Shown in pieces: positions 1 through 61,068 of a stretch of 64,000 nucleotides of DNA (positions are counted from its first letter, which is position 1; each line of letters opens with the position of its first letter). A program made the position numbers and the translations under genes. The stretch is from Staphylococcus phage pSco-10, in the sequence record KX011028.1. One strand, given 5' to 3'. Under the pieces are notes generated by a model. The model saw only the letters and a list, made by a program, of their open reading frames with translations. It was not told where the DNA came from and did not search any database.

Positions 1-901
1 CTAGAATCCTCTCTATTTCCAATCACTTGATTGTACTCTACTCAGTTATATTGCAATAAGCCCTCCCGGCGTAAAGCTCACTTTTCGATAGTCGTTGCAC
101 AAAATAACTTACCAATTCATTAAATGTTTAAGTTTAACCCATCTTTTCTTACTTTTAATATGGTAGTAAATACTCTCTGTTGCTTTTGGTACTTCAGCTA
201 GTATATAATTCTTGTCATACCCTTTATTTATCATATCAATTATAAGCTTAGCATCACTTTCAGTTATCGTTTTATCATAATTAACGAGTCCTGATTTATG
301 TGCATGTGTATTATTTTCTTCTATGGTACACCATTCTAGATTAAGTACACTATTATTTAATTTATCCCCATCTCTATGATTTATATACTTCTTACTTCTA
401 TCATTTTGAGGTATAAAAGCCTTAGCTATTAATCTATGTTTAAATAGATACTTATATTTACCATTAACTTTAATTCTAAACTTGTGATAACCTTTTTTAA
501 TTTGAGAAGCTACGACATAATTAAATTCTGTATTTACTAATCTACCATGATTAGTTATAGAGTAGTTTTTAAACTCTGTCTCTACTAGAATTTCAAAAGG
601 TTCTCTTTTAAACTCAGGTAATCCCATTTTTACTTTAGTTAAGTTATTTTTATTTCGGTAATTTTGAATAGTTGTTTTAGGTATATCTAACTCTTTAGAT
701 AATTCCCTATCAGTCATAGTTAAATAATTATCTTTAATGAATTTCTGTATTTCTTTGTTTTCAGTTATTTTGCTCATGATTGTCTCCTTTTTTTCTTTTA
801 GTATAGCATAAGTATTACTAAAAGTCAAGTTTGGAGAGTTCCCATGAATTAAGAGAGTTTTTTAACCTATAATATCTCTACTATAGGGGGCAGTTTTATT
901 T
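1..901 (-). mobile_element. Group I intron in nrdE, partial (3' end lies beyond the window start). It carries an HNH homing endonuclease ORF.
   Basis: 5' splice site follows GGT (plus 902-904). Proposed P1 is exon GGGU, a 10-nt loop aaauaaaacu, then IGS GCCC. A P2-like hairpin ccuaua/uauagg follows. An R-like P7 5' strand gcaacgacua is seen near plus 70-80. In-frame stop 2 codons into the intron. Confidence 0.6.
109..777 (-). CDS. HNH homing endonuclease, intron-encoded (start moved to internal ATG 775-777, which has an AAGGAG RBS 6 nt upstream)
   Basis: N-terminal HTH region. C-terminal HNH_3-like motif NHRDGDKLNNSVLNLEWCT..EN...H. The track ORF 109..828 begins with TTG. Confidence 0.8.
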   Translation of the reverse strand: MSKITENKEIQKFIKDNYLTMTDRELSKELDIPKTTIQNYRNKNNLTKVKMGLPEFKREPFEILVETEFKNYSITNHGRLVNTEFNYVVASQIKKGYHKFRIKVNGKYKYLFKHRLIAKAFIPQNDRSKKYINHRDGDKLNNSVLNLEWCTIEENNTHAHKSGLVNYDKTITESDAKLIIDMINKGYDKNYILAEVPKATESIYYHIKSKKRWVKLKHLMNW

Positions 902-1621
902 ACCCTGGTCATAAATACCTACTTTATGCTCAATAGCTTTAGCAAAAGCAATAACACCTTTACTTGAGTTAGGTCTATTACGTACTGGAGCACCTTTAGG
1001 TCTAATTCTAGTTAAGTCAATTGCAACTCCGCCACCATTAGAACTAGCGTTAGCTACACTATCTTCAACAAAGTTTAGAGACTCAATTGAATCATCTACT
1101 ACAAATAGGTAACATGAACTTAGTTCACCTCTATTGGCTTGTCCTGAGTTATTATACGTAGGTGTAGATGGTTGGAATGTTTGTTCCATAAGTTGTACTA
1201 GTAATTCTCTAGCTTTTACATAATCATTTTGGAATAGATATAAAGCTACTCGAACGTTATGTTGCTCATAATCTTCAACAAAAATAGGTTTCTCATCTTC
1301 ATCATACTGTTTTGATGCATAAGACTCATAAAACTTCTGACCTGCCATGAAACTAGGGAACTTAAAGTTAAAGCTGTAAGCTAACTTAGTCATTTCATCA
1401 ATAATAGTATCAGGAACACTATCAAATATCTTATCATAAGTTCCTTCTTCTGTCAATACTCTAATTCTTTCTACTTCACTACTAAATTTTCTTGTGTTAT
1501 CATCAATATATTTTAAATACTCATCTAAAGCTTCTTGGTCTTTATAGAGTTTATTTTTTCCATTATCATCTAATTGAGTTATCTCGTTGTTTAACTCAAT
1601 CCATTTTCCATATGTTGCCAT
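902..1621 (-). CDS. nrdE: Ribonucleotide reductase large subunit NrdE, exon 1 (upstream exon; the rest of the gene is beyond the window)
   Basis: Class I RNR alpha motifs SSCYLF and NGGGVAIDLTRIRPKGAPV. The ORF continues only 2 codons (AAA TAA) past the predicted splice site. Confidence 0.8.
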
Positions 1622-2044: not shown

Positions 2045-2653
2045 TTATATATCACTAAGAAGGTCATTAATCAATTCATCTTCATGCTTACTTACCTCAG
2101 ATAAATTAGACTCGACCTTCTTGTATGGTTTTACATCTTTTTTGTCGTAGCAAGATATAATATAAGAAGGTGTAAATGAGGTCAACCCACTCATGGTAGT
2201 TATAAGGACATCGTAAAAAAATTTGTCTTTTCTAATATTATCAATAATAAAATCTGTTCTCATAACAGGGTATTCATTATCTCTTAAGTCCTCATATACT
2301 TTTTCATCATAAGGTAAAGCAACGTAACTCTGAGCTCTATTTCTAGTAAATATTAAGCAAGGTGTCTTATTCACCTTGCTACTATCATTAATTACTTGTT
2401 CCCACCATGTGTGTGGCTCTCTATTGTTTAGAAGAACATTATCTATAGTCCATTCTTCTCTATGTTTACATTCAACTACTAAAGGAAAATTAGCTTCCTG
2501 AGGTACTACTATATCTCCGACAGCATTATTATCTTTACCCCAAGAGGCACCACCTGATTGAGGAGACCTATTAAATTGATATCCCCACCAAGCAGTTAAT
2601 TCTTTAGCTATTTTACGTTCGAATGTATCTCCTTTTTTCTTACTGTTCGTCAT
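2045..2653 (-). CDS. Hjc-like PD-(D/E)XK Holliday junction resolvase
   Basis: KGDTFERKIAKEL and GDIVVP....VVECKH match the archaeal Hjc catalytic arrangement. Confidence 0.6.
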   Translation of the reverse strand: MTNSKKKGDTFERKIAKELTAWWGYQFNRSPQSGGASWGKDNNAVGDIVVPQEANFPLVVECKHREEWTIDNVLLNNREPHTWWEQVINDSSKVNKTPCLIFTRNRAQSYVALPYDEKVYEDLRDNEYPVMRTDFIIDNIRKDKFFYDVLITTMSGLTSFTPSYIISCYDKKDVKPYKKVESNLSEVSKHEDELINDLLSDI

Positions 2654-3092
2654 TTTTCTTCAACTGAATTACTTTTTCATTGCTGTCAGATTCAGTTTCT
2701 TCTTGTACTTCTTCTTGTTGTTTTTGACGTAATTCTTCTTGCTTCTCTTTTAAGTAAGCTTCTCGTTTATCATTTAACTTATTCTTAGCTTTTTCAACTT
2801 GTTCTTGAGTTACTCCTAACTCATCTTCCATGATAATCATCATTAAGTCAATTGCATTGAATGCATCATTAAAATCTCCTGAAATCTCTTGAACTGTAAT
2901 AGCATTAAGTACTTTAGCAATACGAGTTGCTTCTTCTAAAGAAACACTACGTGAGCCAATTCTATCCAACTGTTTAGCTGTTTTCTCATCAACTTGTTTA
3001 CCATCAACAGTTCCCTGTACTACAGCTTCAATCCATTTCTCCATGTCTGCTTGACTAATACCTTTTGTGTGTGTGCTAATATTTTTTTCCAT
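2640..3092 (-). CDS. hypothetical protein
   Basis: 150-aa ORF with codon usage coherent with its neighbours. Confidence 0.6.
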   Translation of the reverse strand: MEKNISTHTKGISQADMEKWIEAVVQGTVDGKQVDEKTAKQLDRIGSRSVSLEEATRIAKVLNAITVQEISGDFNDAFNAIDLMMIIMEDELGVTQEQVEKAKNKLNDKREAYLKEKQEELRQKQQEEVQEETESDSNEKVIQLKKNDEQ

Positions 3093-3430
3093 TATTCTTG
3101 TTCTCCTTTTTCTTCTTCATTTTTAGGTTCTTCTTGTGATTTATCAATTGATTCTTGAATGTAGTCTAATACATCTTCGTTAATAAGCTCTGCTTTATAC
3201 AAAGCATCAATTAAAATATTTAAGTTTAACTCATTGTTGTATTCTAAGTCTGTCATTTGCTCATTAACACCTATCATAAGGTTAGTAATAGCTTTAGCTA
3301 CATCTGTTAATGTTGCTGTTTCTTCTTTACCTATTTCTTCTAATTGATGTTGTCGTTGCTCATTACCAACTCTTAGAGCTGTAATGTATTCATCTACAAA
3401 TTTTAAAATATCTTTTTTATTATTTGACAT
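3092..3430 (-). CDS. hypothetical acidic protein
   Basis: 112-aa ORF. Start and stop overlap neighbouring genes (ATGA-type coupling). Confidence 0.6.
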   Translation of the reverse strand: MSNNKKDILKFVDEYITALRVGNEQRQHQLEEIGKEETATLTDVAKAITNLMIGVNEQMTDLEYNNELNLNILIDALYKAELINEDVLDYIQESIDKSQEEPKNEEEKGEQE

Positions 3431-4579: not shown

Positions 4580-5176
4580 CTATTTACTAATTTTTTTCAT
4601 CAATAGTAACATATTGTAAATCTGTCCTAGGTCACTATAAGTTACGTCTACAGAAAAATCACTCTCTTTAAGTGCTTCATTTAATTGTGACTCTTCTGAT
4701 TTCATGTTAAAGATTCTCAATTCTTCTTCTGTTTTACCTTCTAAGTACCTAGTAACAACAATAGTTTTAAGACTTTGGAATATAACTCCAATATCTCTGA
4801 ACCCTTGTTCTACAATGCTAGCATCATACTCTTCTGTTATAACAGGTAAACCGTATTGTTTAGCTTTCTCAATAATCTTTAAATTATCTTTACGTACTGC
4901 AGGGTTATACCAATACCCTATTCTACATCTATGATTATTATCTCTAATAATATCTAGGTCATTACTTTCTAAACCGTAAGACGAAGGTAAAGTAGAACGT
5001 AATCTTTTTAATTCTAAATACTCTCCATTTCTGCTTAACTTATACTCATAAGCATTACTTAAAGGATACCAATCAACTAAATTAGCTGTAGGTACATTCT
5101 CTATTGTTTTGTGCTCCTTATTACGATGAAACACATTAAGTGTTGCATTATCTTTATCTAAAATCTTTAATTTCAT
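4580..5176 (-). CDS. hypothetical protein (start taken at internal ATG, 1 nt overlap with the upstream HNH gene stop)
   Basis: The track ORF 4580..5221 extends into the upstream gene. Met16 gives a compact arrangement. Confidence 0.55.
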   Translation of the reverse strand: MKLKILDKDNATLNVFHRNKEHKTIENVPTANLVDWYPLSNAYEYKLSRNGEYLELKRLRSTLPSSYGLESNDLDIIRDNNHRCRIGYWYNPAVRKDNLKIIEKAKQYGLPVITEEYDASIVEQGFRDIGVIFQSLKTIVVTRYLEGKTEEELRIFNMKSEESQLNEALKESDFSVDVTYSDLGQIYNMLLLMKKISK

Positions 5177-5757
5177 TATTTTTCCTCCAGTTTTATTTCT
5201 TCTTCTGTGGCATAACGCCATTTATAATCTTTATGATATCCACCTCTTCTACCTGTACATTGTTGTGATATACTTTGATGTGTAAATCCACATCTATCAG
5301 CTTCCATCATAGATTTAAAATATATCTTATCCTTACCATTTCTATGCTCTCCTATAATAGGAGTACCTCTGACATTATTTTTTATCTTAGTCTCAGATAC
5401 CTTATTAATACGACTACCGTAGGTATTATTATAGCTATGAGTACACCACTCTAAGTTATCTACTCTATTATTTTCTTTATTCTCATCTTTATGATTTATG
5501 CAAGGTAGATTATCAACATTAGGTAAAAAATGAGTAGCTACTAATTTATGAACCGTTACCGATTTTCTTTTTTTATTATCATATAAATGTACTACCATGT
5601 ACCCAATACCATTATTATTCAAAGATAAAATTTTCTCTTTCTTTTTCATCATATGGTTAGACCTTTTTATTAGCTTCTCTTTTGCCTTAACCCTACCATA
5701 ATTAGAAATCATATAATAGTTTTCATATCCTTCTATATCTTTCCATTCTTCTTTCAT
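5176..5757 (-). CDS. HNH homing endonuclease, free-standing
   Basis: Motif HKLVATHF...CINHKDENKENNRVDNLEWCT..NN in the HNH_3 family. TAATG overlap with the sbcC stop. Confidence 0.8.
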   Translation of the reverse strand: MKEEWKDIEGYENYYMISNYGRVKAKEKLIKRSNHMMKKKEKILSLNNNGIGYMVVHLYDNKKRKSVTVHKLVATHFLPNVDNLPCINHKDENKENNRVDNLEWCTHSYNNTYGSRINKVSETKIKNNVRGTPIIGEHRNGKDKIYFKSMMEADRCGFTHQSISQQCTGRRGGYHKDYKWRYATEEEIKLEEK

Positions 5758-40408: not shown

Positions 40409-41422
40409 TTATAGATAAATAAATTTATACTTTTTACAATGCTTACTTTTACCTTTTAAAACTTTACTTATATTTGGTGCTGATGCATTAATTAATCTAG
40501 CTACTTCATTAACAGTACCTTCAACTGTTTCACCTGTAACCATATGTGTTCCTTTAATCATTTTCTTTTGGCTTCTTTTACGTGCTTCTTCAGGTGTATA
40601 TTTGTATTCTTCATCTACTAGTCTAAACATTTTGTTATTCAAAGTAAGTCTATCAATATTACCATATAAGTAAGAAGATACCCCTTTTATTCCGGTCTCA
40701 ATTTCACACTCTTTAATAGAGTTAAATATAGTTTCTTCATTTTTATCTAAATCATACATAGCTATTGATGTTGTTTTTCTTGGTCTGTTTTTGATACTCT
40801 CTTCTTTTTTGATTCTTCTTGTCTCTACATAAGTCTTTCTTTCTAATTCCTGCTCTTCATTTACTAAACTAAACTTGTATCCTGATGTGGAGTTTAGTTC
40901 CCCGATTAAACATTTGTAAAAATTACTATCTGTAAGTTTATACTTATTGATAATATCATTATAACTACCTGTATATAAATAACGACCATTCTTTGTGTAG
41001 ACATTAATATCACCATCAAATTTTAAAGAAGTAGTGTACACTTCTACTGTATCAGGTTTCTTAATCTCTGTAAAATAGTTTCTTAAAATTTGATATACTT
41101 GCTCTAAGGTTTTATTTTTATAACTTATATCTATATAAATTATATTATTGTTATCACAATATTCTTTTTTAATTCTATCAAGTAATTTTATTCTATCAAA
41201 ATCTAAATTGAATACTTGTCTATAATGTTGTTCACCCATATATTCAATACAATAAAATTTTCCTTGGTATTCTACTAAAAAATCCATTCTTTGTTTTGTA
41301 CCTATGTTGTTCCTAAAAGAATATTCTCGTTTATACTTCATATTATTAAAACCTAAAATTGAATCTACTAATCGTTCCCCATGAGAACCTAGTACTTTAT
41401 CTGAATATATCATTGATATCAC
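40409..41422 (-). CDS. free-standing homing endonuclease-like protein with an N-terminal Vsr/DUF559-like nuclease domain
   Basis: RMDFLVEYQGKFYCIEYMGEQHY is shared with ORFs 51768..52292 and 58823..59770. Confidence 0.7.
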   Translation of the reverse strand: MISMIYSDKVLGSHGERLVDSILGFNNMKYKREYSFRNNIGTKQRMDFLVEYQGKFYCIEYMGEQHYRQVFNLDFDRIKLLDRIKKEYCDNNNIIYIDISYKNKTLEQVYQILRNYFTEIKKPDTVEVYTTSLKFDGDINVYTKNGRYLYTGSYNDIINKYKLTDSNFYKCLIGELNSTSGYKFSLVNEEQELERKTYVETRRIKKEESIKNRPRKTTSIAMYDLDKNEETIFNSIKECEIETGIKGVSSYLYGNIDRLTLNNKMFRLVDEEYKYTPEEARKRSQKKMIKGTHMVTGETVEGTVNEVARLINASAPNISKVLKGKSKHCKKYKFIYL

Positions 41423-41518: not shown

Positions 41519-41545
41519 TTAAGTTCTAGCCTTATCTGATGCTGT
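41519..41545 (-). CDS. tail tube protein exon 3 (TASDKART plus stop)
   Basis: In-frame continuation after predicted intron 2, ending in TAA. Gives a 142-aa product overall. Confidence 0.6.
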   Translation of the reverse strand, partial: TASDKART

Positions 41546-41833
41546 CCTCTATACCCTATCTTTCGATATATTTTAAAGGGAGTAGACTATACCATAATCT
41601 TAATGTGTAACTAAGACTCACTTATTATAGTCGTTGAAGCTTCCCACTCTCGTAGGCTTGCCTGCGTATCATCTATTTTACTGTACTTAGGGTTTAACCT
41701 TATACTATACTAGATATTTTTTCTGATTTCTCAACATTCAAGCTTACCCTTTCAGGTTACTTTGTAGTTATCTAGTCTTTAAGACTTTCACGCAATTTAA
41801 AGTGTTTTCTATGCTTGTCACCAAACATAGCCT
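41546..41833 (-). ncRNA. ORF-less group I intron 2 in the tail tube gene (288 nt)
   Basis: Proposed P1 is exon CCUU, a 9-nt loop, IGS GAGG. Q-like aauccgcagg, R-like uucaacgacu and S-like agucu elements are present. Terminal G. The intron begins with UAA. Paralogous to intron 1. Confidence 0.65.
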
Positions 41834-41896
41834 CTATTAGTTAAAGGTAGCTAAACTCAATTTCTTCTGTTACAATTTCATTTGTCTGCCACGTCT
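41834..41896 (-). CDS. tail tube protein exon 2 (NYNETWQTNEIVTEEIEFSYL)
   Basis: 63-nt in-frame segment between two intron-like repeats. Exon 1 ends in U and the intron ends in G. Confidence 0.6.
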
Positions 41897-42239
41897 CGTT
41901 GTAGTTCACTTATACCCTATCTCTCGATATATTTAAAGGGGTTAGACTGTCCCATGTCCCTTATTTCTAAGGTGACTACCTATTACAGTCGTTGAAGCTT
42001 CCCACTCTCGTAGGCTTGCCTGCGGATTTCCTATTGATTGAGTACTTAGGACATTAATAATGTGTCGTTAGTTATTAATGCTTTTATCTCACCATATACT
42101 ATCCAATTAATTTTTTCTGATTTCTCAACATTCACGCTTACTCTTTCAAGTTACGTTGTAGTTTAATTGGCTTTAAGGTGTTCCCGCAATTTCAGGTATT
42201 ATTCGACTATACATTACTGTATAGAAGCAACAATTATTT
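41897..42239 (-). ncRNA. ORF-less group I intron 1 in the tail tube gene (343 nt)
   Basis: Proposed P1 is exon CAAU, an 8-nt loop, IGS GUUG. P2 hairpin cuauaca/uguauag. P4 ugcggg/ccgca. P7 gacu/aguc. Terminal G. Confidence 0.65.
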
Positions 42240-42578
42240 ATTGGCACTACATCCGTGGTAACTAATAATAACTTGTTTTGTTAAGTTATCTACTACTAAA
42301 ATATCAATGATATCTTTCTTAAGAATTTCTTCACCAAGTGAAGCATATCCTAAATCTGCAAAGTTTTCTTTTTTCATACGTAAACGTTCTACTGTAATTG
42401 TACCCTCATAACGTAAGTATACGTGTTCTTGAGGCATGATAGAACCGATTTCGTATACACCAGTTGTACCATATTCACGAGTACCTGATGCTGATTGTGC
42501 TCTTCCTACCGGTTTACCTTTAATCATAAGTAGGACGGTATTACCAGTATGGACGGTTTGTTTAGCTTCTGATGCCAT
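42240..42578 (-). CDS. tail tube protein exon 1 (113 codons)
   Basis: The track ORF 42234..42578 ends 2 codons into the intron (AAA TAA). RBS TTAGGAGAG. Confidence 0.85.
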
Positions 42579-58738: not shown

Positions 58739-60021
58739 CAATTACTACCGCTAGTTTCCTAGTATTTGTTTTACGGTTTAGACTATATCATAACCCTTAG
58801 TTTAGGTTAAGGGCTCTCTGCTTTACACTAATAATTTTTTATCTAAATATCTTGCTATAGTATTATAATATTTTTCAGTATACTTAATTTCAATTAACTT
58901 ATATCCTTTTTCGTTTGCATACTTTCGTTTAATATTATCTTTTATAACTTGCTGTTCATATGCTTCTTTACCACCAAAACTATCTATTGGCATGTAGTGC
59001 TGAGCTCCATTATATTCTATTAAGATGTTTAACTCAGGTAAATAAAAGTCGTAGGATAAGTTTCTTTTGTATACTAAATCAGAAAACTTCTTCTGAGTTT
59101 CAAACTTGATATCTCTACTATTAAGATATTTTTCTACATGTTTTTCTCCAATAGACATTTTACATGTAGGACACATATCTCTTGTTAGTAAATGATTAGG
59201 TTTGATTTCCCATTCTGTTCCACATTTATGTCTTACTAGTATTTTGTTTTTTGAGTTAATATAGGTTCCTAGTACTTTGTAGTCACTACCATATCTATCC
59301 TTAACCTCCTTAACAAATACTTCGTGAGGCTTTCTTTGGCTAAGGTTATGAGACTTAATACGACAATACCAACATCTAGAATGTGAAGATATGAAAGCGT
59401 TAGGTGTAACCTCCCACTCCTTGTTACATTCTGTGTGTCGTAGTGTTACTTTATTATAAACACCATTGTATTCTCCTACTAAGATGTACTCCTCTCCTAC
59501 TATGTTGTATAACTCTTTCTTAAACTGTTCAGTAGTTTTAGTTTTTTTACCTTTTGTTTTGTTATTACATTCCGGACATCTTGTTCCTTCTAATACACTT
59601 TTAGGTCGAACCCAATACTTATGATGGTTACAATTCTCTGAGTTGTGTTGTATTAAAACTTTAGTATGGTTATTTGTATACTCACTTAACAAATTATATT
59701 CATCTTTTACCTTAGAGAATAATTTATTTTTAAATTCTTCTGTTGTCATCCTTCGTGCCAAATTAAGCACCTCCTTATTATTAATATTATTTTTTTAAAA
59801 AATTATTAGTTTTTATCTAGTTCTCACTTACACCTTTTTGTAAGTTACCTAGAAATTTAGTCGTTAGGCATTTAGTTAACCTTACAAATACACTATAACA
59901 TGTATTTTATATAAAGTCAACACTTAGCACGGGATTATCATATGCTTCTTTAAGCACTTAGATTTTCCCCGTTTAACAGAGTTCTTCGATACACATTACT
60001 GTGTAAAGGGGCTACCTATTT
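58739..60021 (-). mobile_element. group I intron in terL (about 1.28 kb) carrying a homing endonuclease ORF
   Basis: 5' splice site after GGT (plus 60022-60024). Proposed P1 is exon GGGU, a 9-nt loop, IGS GCCC. R-like cuaacgacuaaa precedes the ORF. S-like gauauagucu and a GAAA-tetraloop P9 (cuag gaaa cuag) follow it. The 3' splice site is uncertain. Confidence 0.6.
58823..59770 (-). CDS. intron-encoded homing endonuclease with zinc-finger DNA-binding modules and a C-terminal Vsr/DUF559-like nuclease domain
   Basis: Several C..C/H..C knuckles. C-terminal DFYLPELNILIEYNGAQHY. AAGGAGG RBS with an ambiguous TTG/GTG start. Confidence 0.75.
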   Translation of the reverse strand: MLNLARRMTTEEFKNKLFSKVKDEYNLLSEYTNNHTKVLIQHNSENCNHHKYWVRPKSVLEGTRCPECNNKTKGKKTKTTEQFKKELYNIVGEEYILVGEYNGVYNKVTLRHTECNKEWEVTPNAFISSHSRCWYCRIKSHNLSQRKPHEVFVKEVKDRYGSDYKVLGTYINSKNKILVRHKCGTEWEIKPNHLLTRDMCPTCKMSIGEKHVEKYLNSRDIKFETQKKFSDLVYKRNLSYDFYLPELNILIEYNGAQHYMPIDSFGGKEAYEQQVIKDNIKRKYANEKGYKLIEIKYTEKYYNTIARYLDKKLLV

Positions 60022-61068
60022 ACCCAGTGAATAATTATAAAAGGCTTGTTTTGATTCTGTGTTCATTTCTTTTTCAACAAGTTGGTCTGCAGAAATCCAT
60101 ACAGCGTTCATTTGAGATATATAGTAACCTCTAATACCTGAGTTATTTTTGGTTCTATCAGGGTAACGACATTCCCATACCCCATTATACCATCTATCTA
60201 AAGGTTTACCACATTTTTGACATACATATTGATAAGTACCATCTTGAACTGTTTTTGCTGTTTCATCTATACCATCAGGATTAACTAATAATAAATTACC
60301 ACTTTCCATCAAATTATTTTCATCATATGGTGCATATTTCATCTCATTATGATAATCACAATGTTGACAAACATGTGCATAATACCATTGGTCAGATTGT
60401 TGGTAAAGTTTATGAATACCAATTCCAGGTGCTGAAGGTGTTGAGAACCTACGTACTATTTGGAATGTAGAACTTGACATGGACTCTAGTGCAGAAGACT
60501 CAGCAAGGCTATTTACCCTCTCATATTCATCCATTGCAAGAAAATCTATATCTACACCTTCTACTGTTCCTGGTTTACTACTTGTTCTAAAGAATAAACT
60601 AGAGTTTCTTATCTGTTTATACCCTAAAGAATCTTTATCCCAATTAACTATATCAGTAAAATATCTCTTCTCTAATACAGGATTTAACCTAGATTGAACA
60701 AATTTTTTCATCTGCTCGTTGGTCGGGAAGGTGTAAAGACATTTAGGTGATTTATAACTATACATATCTGCAAAATGAACCATTTCCATTACACTCATCT
60801 CACTCAAACCAAGCTGTCTGCTTTTTATTACTGCTTTATTTGGATGAGTGTCATTTACTATACGGACTTGCCACGGTCTATGAGCCTGTGCTTTACTTCT
60901 ATCCCTCTTAGGAATACTGAAAGTTATAGGGTGACCCCTTAACGTGTGATACTTAAGCATATAGGTAGAAGGGTTTAACATATTGATTATATGGTCTACC
61001 TGTTCTCTTGTTATTTTTTCTGTTTGAAATGTTTCTTGTGCTATCTTAATTAGTTCTTTTCCATCCAT
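60022..61068 (-). CDS. terL: terminase large subunit exon 1 (ATPase domain)
   Basis: 349 codons of terminase ATPase up to ...NYSLG. The track ORF continues only AAA TAG into the intron. Confidence 0.8.

Follow-up and report, generated by a model that had tools for sequence, protein, structure and literature searches.

A mobile phage IA2-type group I intron with an intact HNH endonuclease gene very probably interrupts nrdE in Staphylococcus phage pSco-10

In the 64,000 nt of Staphylococcus phage pSco-10 DNA analysed here (KX011028.1; this whole stretch is hereafter called the window), the nrdE gene breaks off after 240 codons and is followed, on the same strand, by an open reading frame (ORF) for an HNH endonuclease, which raises the question of what interrupts the gene and to which other elements the interruption is related. 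The window comes from a Staphylococcus phage that is Kayvirus-like and belongs to the Twortvirinae (by megablast, bases 1–2100 are 96.5% identical to their best public match), and the genes of its nrdE region all lie on the minus strand. An earlier note, made from the letters of this DNA, had proposed a group I intron in nrdE and a close resemblance to a second intron in the terL gene. We consider it very probable that nrdE is interrupted by a mobile group I intron of about 987 nt that belongs to the phage IA2 type and splices itself, that this intron lies in phase 0 behind Gly-240, within the conserved motif YDQG/GVRQG, and that it is the orthologue of the first nrdE intron of phage Twort (nrdE-I1), with its endonuclease gene intact. 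The locus comprises the following elements:

902..1621, minus strand: nrdE exon 1, 240 codons, ending in ...YDQG, its last base, U, at 902
896..898, minus strand: UAA stop codon, in frame, two codons into the intron, from the sequence and the ORF translation
1..901, minus strand: group I intron, first 901 nt of ~987, delimited as an insertion relative to intron-less phages, its length and 3' end being taken from phages PG-2021_35, 184DA and EW3

The ORF that contains exon 1 (896..1621, minus strand) has the C-terminal end ...VGIYDQGK-stop, encoded by GAC CAG GGT AAA TAA, with GGT at 904–902 and TAA at 898–896, and its product is the large subunit of class Ib ribonucleotide reductase, of which it holds the first 240 residues; an intron-less NrdE used as tblastn query is covered by exon 1 over residues 1–240. 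The 5' end of the intron is AAAUAAAACUGCCCCC. The YDQGGxRxG segment in which the interruption falls is equivalent to 'loop 2' of class I reductases, relaying allosteric specificity to the active site, and invariant segments like loop 2 are typical homing sites.

Close relatives are polymorphic for the presence of this insert at one exact site. Megablast of bases 1–2100 returned 247 Staphylococcus phage records, 11 of which span the whole query and 236 of which are without the first ~900 bases, and the homology of each intron-less record inspected ends precisely at 902/903, at the U of GGT. Alignment of the intron-less phage P68 with PG-2021_35, the closest intron carrier, places the insertion point between ...TATGACCA(A/G)GG(C/T) and GGAGT(T/A)AGACAAGG. 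The insert of PG-2021_35 is 987 nt long, starts with AAAUAAAACUGCCCC directly after the U and finishes with ...ACAUAACUG; exon 2 of the relatives starts in frame with GGAGUAAGACAAGG, and excision of the PG-2021_35 insert rejoins ...YDQG-GVRQGSGA... in frame.

Base 1 of the window corresponds to intron nucleotide 901, the remaining 86 nt and the whole of exon 2 lying to the left of it. The 3' splice site, which the earlier note had rightly placed beyond the window, is found 86 nt further left in the closest relative, which is 96.3% identical across the intron. These last 86 nt hold the 3' strands of the paired regions P8 and P7, as well as P9, P9.1 and the terminal G, and the sequence predicted to the left of the window consists of UCUAGGAU (P8 3' strand), GAUAUAGUC (P7 3' strand), a P9 whose loop is GNRA, and ...CAUAACUG, with GGAGUAAGACAAGG coming next. 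In PG-2021_35, 184DA, EW3 and Twort the intron ends in ...CAUAA(C/U)UG, ahead of an in-frame exon 2; because the last 86 nt of the pSco-10 intron are off the window, its 3' end was deduced from the first three of these phages. Leftward extension found no match to an exact 81-mer in IMG/VR or to an exact 48-mer in metagenome contigs, and no record of the exact HNH protein; looking up the exon 1 product returned one metagenome contig, of 2969 bp, which ends within the HNH ORF.

The fold of the insert was assessed by a structure alignment, with the ORF replaced by a tetraloop, of seven homologues: the window completed with the PG-2021_35 tail, PG-2021_35, 184DA, EW3, Twort nrdE-I1, the intron in the recA-like gene of phage SAP_01 and the helicase intron of phage Romulus. 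The following elements were identified, in transcript order:

888..905, minus strand: P1, exon GGGU and intron A (905–901) with UGCCC (892–888), recovered by RNAalifold
866..887, minus strand: P2 hairpin CCUAUAGUA/UAUUAUAGG, two pairs with compensatory change
852..857, minus strand: P3 5' strand, CUCUCU, pairing with 14..9, with four of six pairs compensatory and 100% of cells paired
773..848, minus strand: P4-P5-P5a domain, P4 being UUCAUG (848–843)/CAUGAG (778–773), P5 UCUCC (837–833)/GGAGA (787–783) and P5a 824–816/803–795, from RNAalifold
764..772, minus strand: P6 5' strand, CAAAAUAAC, pairing with 108..100 in nine of nine pairs, the ORF filling the P6 loop
100..108, minus strand: P6 3' strand, GUUAUUUUG, directly after the ORF stop codon
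88..99, minus strand: J6/7 and P7 5' strand (R element UGCAACGACUAU; P7 is GACUAU at 93–88), pairing with AUAGUC of the S element, which is off the window and seen in relatives; invariant in the seven sequences
20..82, minus strand: P7.1 (imperfect hairpin, ~82–55) and P7.2 (CAAUC 33–29/GAUUG 24–20), between P7 and the 3' strand of P3, with P7.2 recovered by RNAalifold
9..14, minus strand: P3 3' strand, AGAGAG, from the pair count in the seven-homologue alignment
1..7, minus strand: AUUCUAG, with which the P8 5' strand starts before the window edge truncates it; relatives show the whole of P8

RNAalifold recovered, unaided, P1, P2, P3, P4, P5, P5a, P6, P7.2, P8 and P9.1. In the full model, which includes the P7 pseudoknot and comprises 12 helices, 94.5% of the pair cells are paired, versus 38–47% when the 3' partners are slid by 1–3 columns; compensatory changes occur in 23 pairs, versus 0–8 in the slid controls, none of 500 shuffles was as good, and every helix forms in each homologue when the sequences are checked individually. 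The clearest helix is P3 (CUCUCU/AGAGAG in pSco-10, CUUCCU/AGGAAG in Twort, CCUUAU/AUAAGG in SAP_01 and CUCCUU/AGGGAG in Romulus), and P6 changes in a compensatory manner as well (CAAGAUAA/UUAUCUUG in Twort and CAAUAAAUU/AAUUUAUUG in SAP_01). The conserved group I core, P3-P4-P5-P6 together with P7-P3-P8, the P7 being formed from the R and S elements, could be traced, with the 3' strands of P7 and P8 seen in the relatives, and U902 at the 5' splice site forms the U·G wobble, with G891, that characterizes group I introns. The signature of subgroup IA is present in the 73 nt between P7 and the 3' strand of P3, which hold two hairpins, P7.2 being supported in six of the seven sequences and P7.1 being uncertain in its register. 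The stems of P9 and P9.1 are kept, with sequences that differ by clade, and the P9 loop is of the GNRA type; since MAFFT misaligned P9 between clades, this helix was checked sequence by sequence and omitted from the formal pair count. The Rfam model RF00028 matches the 3' part of the relative's intron (P8, S element and P9) with 34.2 bits (E 1.2e-6).

Two further elements belong to the endonuclease gene carried in the loop of P6 and to its expression:

109..777, minus strand: HNH homing-endonuclease gene, 222 amino acids (aa), with AUG at 777–775 within the P4 3' strand, Shine-Dalgarno (SD) sequence AAGGAG at 789–784 and stop at 111–109
800..828, minus strand: sigma-70-like promoter sequence TTGACT-17-TATACT within P5a, with TG before the -10 element and 10 of 12 hexamer positions matching

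The plausible start codon of the ORF is preceded by AAAGGAGACAATC. The product carries an HNH domain with the catalytic His and Asn, as indicated by matches to Pfam HNH_3 (PF13392; 35.8 bits vs. a cut-off of 24.8, E 6e-9), to the I-HmuI structure 1U3E (E 1.4e-8), with the motif H134...N146...N155 kept in the alignment, and to PHROG 59 (E 8e-33), and it shares 30% identity with I-TwoI. Proteins with more than 90% identity to it were found only in the 11 intron-containing phages, the next best matches reaching at most 38%. A 239-aa version of the ORF, initiated at TTG, was rejected, as its start lies within the -35 hexamer and has no SD sequence. At this level, the earlier note described the locus well: an exon 1 ending in ...VGIYDQGK-stop ahead of an HNH-bearing group I intron, the pairing of exon GGGU with GCCC (905–901/892–888), the P2 hairpin (887–866) and an HNH ORF with a ribosome-binding site at an internal ATG (777–775; HNH_3 above cut-off) were all recovered, on the minus strand. 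It also recognized the R element correctly as GCAACGACUA; its position is 98–89 and not 70–80.

The signals for expression of this gene overlap the ribozyme: GGAG of the SD sequence lies in the P5 3' strand, the AUG in the P4 3' strand (CAUGAG), and P6 brackets the rest of the ORF. The P4-P5-P5a domain alone has a folding energy of -19 kcal/mol (z = -3.66), its stems taking in both SD and AUG, and for an RNA starting after the -10 element no structure is predicted around SD and AUG (0 kcal/mol). Both promoter hexamers are kept in the alignment with Twort I1 and the SAP_01 intron. In a full pre-mRNA, the SD sequence and AUG of the endonuclease gene would be paired in the ribozyme's own P5 and P4, and a transcript started at the promoter-like site in P5a would be without the 5' strands of P4 and P5, so that its ribosome-binding site would be free. 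An internal promoter, and sequestration of the ORF ribosome-binding site in long transcripts, have been described for the td intron of T4 (PMC2988022; PMC3984707), where such control shields splicing against ribosomes that enter the core (PMC2988022).

A sensitive search with the nrdE intron found the nrdE gene of phage Twort (AF485080), whose exon 1 stops at residue 240 too (tblastn with the intron-less NrdE query). The intron that follows, nrdE-I1, is 429 nt long, with ...CAGGGU/AAACAAUUCUGCCCCCUAUA at its start and ...CAUAAUUG/GGA at its end. It occupies the same codon of the same gene (after CAG GGT, Gly-240), has the same P1 (GGGUA/UGCCC), is 84% identical to the pSco-10 intron over the first ~63 nt and ~79% over the core, and forms the same helices via compensatory changes. 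Whereas the pSco-10 intron has the full 222-codon gene, Twort I1 keeps only the first ~12 and the last ~27 endonuclease codons, frameshifted: its frame opens with MSKITNSKETQK (pSco-10 MSKITENKEIQK) and jumps to VPNATKSIYHHIKSK (pSco-10 VPKATESIYYHIKSK), after which a 1-nt insertion shifts the frame. This deletion and frameshift mark it as a decaying copy of the gene that is intact in pSco-10. The Twort nrdE introns were reportedly first described by Landthaler, Begley, Lau and Shub in 2002, with lengths said to be 429 and 1087 nt, the former agreeing with that measured here. PMC3653736 cites Landthaler et al. (2002) for two self-splicing introns in Twort nrdE, one with an HNH enzyme, and the Twort orthologue is reported to splice in vivo; the intron content of the Twortvirinae has been described as well documented (PMC11878797; PMC5618024).

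The structure and the Twort orthologue suggest the following course of splicing. A ribosome translating exon 1 would stop at the UAA two codons into the intron; the RNA would fold into P1–P9, and an exogenous G would attack after U902, at the U·G wobble; the terminal G would then dock and the exons would be joined, giving ...YDQG-GVRQG.... The 222-aa I-HmuI-like HNH enzyme may nick or cut the intron-less nrdE of co-infecting phages, upon which recombinational repair would copy in the intron together with flanking exon bases.

The insertion polymorphism, the covariation and the homology to Twort nrdE-I1 go beyond chance. Several observations weigh against this reading. The window does not reach the last 86 nt of the intron, the 3' splice site or exon 2, all of which are deduced from relatives with 94–96% identity. 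P4, P5 and P7 are invariant in the alignment and therefore contribute no covariation evidence, no unique register could be fixed for P7.1, and P10 is weak, with at most ~2 bp. The promoter is a consensus match, in a region that has fewer such matches than shuffled sequence (5 vs. 9.5). The RF00028 match, with 34.2 bits, stays under the gathering score of 50 bits, a shortfall due to the 670-nt ORF in P6 and to the window cut. Rfam scans of the whole 64-kb window, at the gathering threshold and with E up to 10, returned no group I intron, though four are present, and these were detected only by sub-region scans; the speed filters of Rfam lose AT-rich phage introns in long inputs.

How the nrdE intron relates to the one in terL bears on where both came from. 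This second element is:

58739..60021, minus strand: terL group I intron, 1283 nt, with P1 GGGU/GCCC, a non-HNH_3 nuclease ORF at 58823..59770 and an RF00028 match of 33 bits on its 5' half

Exon 1 of terL ends in ...NYSLG at CTG GGT (60022), the frame running CTG GGT/AAA TAG, the terminal base of the intron is G, and exon 2 continues with MPFEDV vs. YPFEDV in the intron-less phage 812. The intron bears GGGTAAATAGGTAGCCC at 60025–60009 (minus strand), which had zero matches in 100 shuffles. It has a short P2 closed by a GUAA loop, like the tail tube and SAP_01 introns, and its P4-P6 sequences are td-like. The 315-aa product of its ORF matches PHROG 559, 'HNH endonuclease' (E 6e-86), and not HNH_3, and the ORF lies between P7.1 and the 3' strand of P3, not in P6. 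We also observed that this protein has only weak, zinc-finger-type Pfam matches, its C-terminal part (...IEYNGAQHY...) resembling a Vsr/DUF559-type nuclease, and that the insertion in terL follows residue 349, whereas MSA6 and fRuSau02 are described as having theirs at residue 65.

Both introns are accompanied by the same exon base at position -4 (window 902–905 and 60022–60025, minus strand), which is G with the intron and A without it, a synonymous difference that completes the fourth P1 pair of GGGU/GCCC. In nrdE, the Gln codon before the site is CAG (CAG GGT) in five of five intron-containing alleles and CAA (CAA GGY) in all five intron-less alleles examined; CAG occurring only with the intron, the G that completes P1 travels with the intron in this gene. 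In terL, CTG or TTG precedes GGT in two intron-containing alleles and TTA in one intron-less allele. These samples are small and the intron-containing genomes are related. Arrival of this G with the intron could be due to co-conversion in the course of homing, to selection favouring a stronger P1 or to shielding of the site against the endonuclease. A more far-reaching reading would be that of an intron lineage with a fixed guide, GCCC, to which the exons are made to fit, new GGU (Gly) sites being reached by reverse splicing or illegitimate homing and the P1-completing base being dragged along by co-conversion; this reading further has the endonuclease gene run by the ribozyme core itself (SD in P5, AUG in P4, promoter in P5a), such that folding and translation would be mutually exclusive, in a layout conserved from Staphylococcus to Enterococcus phages. 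We regard this combined proposal as rather unlikely.

Another possible relation, that one element gave rise within the genome to both the nrdE and the terL intron by recent copying, P1 and the internal guide sequence (IGS) being shared through recent descent or through reverse splicing into GGGU sites, is suggested by what they have in common: exon GGGU, IGS GCCC(C), the AAAUA leader and the position of the stop, two codons in (GGGU/AAAUA...GCCC), all of which the earlier note had seen, as well as the G at -4; a related intron in an Enterococcus recA-like gene also follows GGGU. Beyond P1, however, the 'nearly identical 5' architecture' claimed in that note breaks down. Once the first ~16 nt are passed, identity between the introns of nrdE and terL is 49% (~63 aligned positions), against 84% between nrdE and Twort nrdE-I1, BLAST finds no similarity between the two except for the S element of 14–18 nt, and they differ in P2 length, P4-P6 sequences, ORF family and ORF location. 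The four introns of the window (those of nrdE and terL and two in the tail tube gene, described below) follow GGGU, GGGU, CAAU and CCUU; with one of six pairs sharing its exon 4-mer (~9% expected with uniform bases), the common GGGU is not beyond chance by itself, and an IGS has to match its exon in any case. The AAAUA leader, present in three of these four introns (nrdE, terL and tube intron 1), is above chance and agrees with the known tendency of phage introns to carry an in-frame stop close behind the 5' splice site (PMC3984707). Recent copying within the genome thus appears distinctly improbable, and the 'related mobile family' of the earlier note survives only in the broad sense that phage IA2-type introns of the Herelleviridae are related, which is already documented; the nearest kin are in other genomes and genes.

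Less probable still, and to our mind very unlikely, is that the insert no longer splices, a decaying intron or HNH cassette having split or inactivated nrdE, with NrdE either non-functional or made of two assembling polypeptides, as with the mobE-split nrdA of Aeromonas phage Aeh1. The GenBank annotation of 184DA, with two nrdE coding sequences flanking an 'HNH endonuclease', and the Rfam score under threshold would fit this possibility. Nevertheless, the low score is accounted for by the 670-nt ORF in P6, all core helices are intact, with compensatory changes preserving helices from genome to genome, the intron is bounded by U and G in the canonical manner, a conserved motif is restored in frame when the exons are joined, and even the Twort orthologue, with its decayed ORF, is reported to splice (PMC3653736). 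An assembly or annotation artefact, with an nrdE frame that is in truth continuous, as the earlier note had envisaged for the case that it was wrong, has practically no likelihood, as nothing was found in its favour and the same insert, with a coherent RNA structure and an intact ORF, lies at the same base in 11 independently sequenced phage genomes and is also found in a metagenome contig. Other types of element were rejected: an intein, given the in-frame stops and the lack of intein motifs, a group II intron, for which there are no matching features, and insertion of a free-standing homing-endonuclease gene without an intron, given the full ribozyme core.

Further introns and endonuclease genes were observed in the window and in related phages. 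The tail tube gene (41519–42578, minus strand) is interrupted by two group I introns, of 333 nt (42239..41907) and 298 nt (41843..41546), with an exon of 21 codons (41906..41844) between them and a last exon of eight codons after the second; as tube intron 2 opens with UAA, the gene seems to end there. When spliced conceptually it encodes 142 aa, colinear with and 99.3% identical to intron-less Kayvirus tube genes, and it parallels orf142 of Twort, a tail tube gene with three introns. Tube intron 2, which is ORF-free, scored 50.7 bits against RF00028 when scanned alone, above the gathering score. Just downstream of the tube gene, a 337-aa ORF (40409–41422, minus strand), with a C-terminal I-HmuI NUMOD-like DNA-binding domain and with promoter-like and terminator-like sequences of its own ahead of it, probably represents a further free-standing gene of the homing-endonuclease-like kind. 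A free-standing HNH gene of 193 aa (5176–5757, minus strand; PHROG 59, E 2e-40) lies between the anti-sigma factor and exonuclease genes and is absent in PG-2021_35, where these two genes abut. In phage 184DA (388–2505), the neighbouring nrdF is also split by an HNH endonuclease gene, probably within another intron, in a region that is outside the pSco-10 window.

The reading of the nrdE insert as a self-splicing intron implies that nrdE should be annotated as one spliced gene with an intron-encoded endonuclease, and not as two fragments. The intact gene of pSco-10 and the deleted, frameshifted remnant of Twort, in the same intron at the same codon, would make a clean natural case of invasion, fixation and decay of an endonuclease gene. 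With SD and AUG overlapping P5 and P4, and the promoter-like site overlapping P5a, the locus offers a compact, testable case of a coupling of folding and expression. Phages of this kind are in therapeutic use, and their content of introns and endonucleases affects marker exclusion in mixed infections and phage breeding. The current understanding of group I introns is left unchanged.

Judged by sequence comparison, the pSco-10 nrdE intron is one more member of a well-described family and is most closely related to Twort nrdE-I1 rather than to the terL intron with which it shares a genome; its nearest kin are found in Twort nrdE, a Kayvirus recA-like gene, a Silviavirus helicase gene and an Enterococcus phage recA-like gene. 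The introns of the Kayvirus SAP_01 recA-like gene, the Silviavirus Romulus/Remus helicase gene, the Enterococcus ECP3 recA-like gene and the Twort orf142/Kayvirus tail tube genes have homologous cores (75–84% identity over parts), whereas their host genes and IGS sequences differ from those of the nrdE intron, and the ORFs of SAP_01 and Romulus are absent or decayed. In ECP3 (Enterococcus, Brockvirinae; 2270–3400), the intron of the recA-like gene follows ...CCGGGU and carries a related full-length HNH gene, 30% identical over 96% of its length, in the same layout, with its AUG within AAUCAUGAG (P4 3' strand).

Twort nrdE intron 2, with I-TwoI, and the DNA polymerase introns of SPO1 and SP82, with I-HmuI and I-HmuII, likewise interrupt replication or nucleotide-metabolism genes of Herelleviridae and encode HNH_3-type enzymes, but they have another insertion site and belong to another intron lineage; in contrast to the I-TwoI and I-HmuI types, the pSco-10 protein has no Pfam-detectable NUMOD4 and has an extra N-terminal region of ~65 aa with a helix-turn-helix-like sequence. 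The td intron of T4, with I-TevI (and also the nrdB and nrdD introns), resembles the pSco-10 intron in its IA2 architecture, in an ORF looped from a peripheral helix (P6 in td) and in an early in-frame stop, and differs from it in its endonuclease, which is GIY-YIG in td and HNH in pSco-10. An internal promoter and sequestration of the ribosome-binding site are shared as well, as predicted for pSco-10 from sequence and folding; in T4 the sequestration is by a dedicated hairpin, whereas in pSco-10 it would be by P4 and P5 of the ribozyme itself, with the promoter-like site in P5a.

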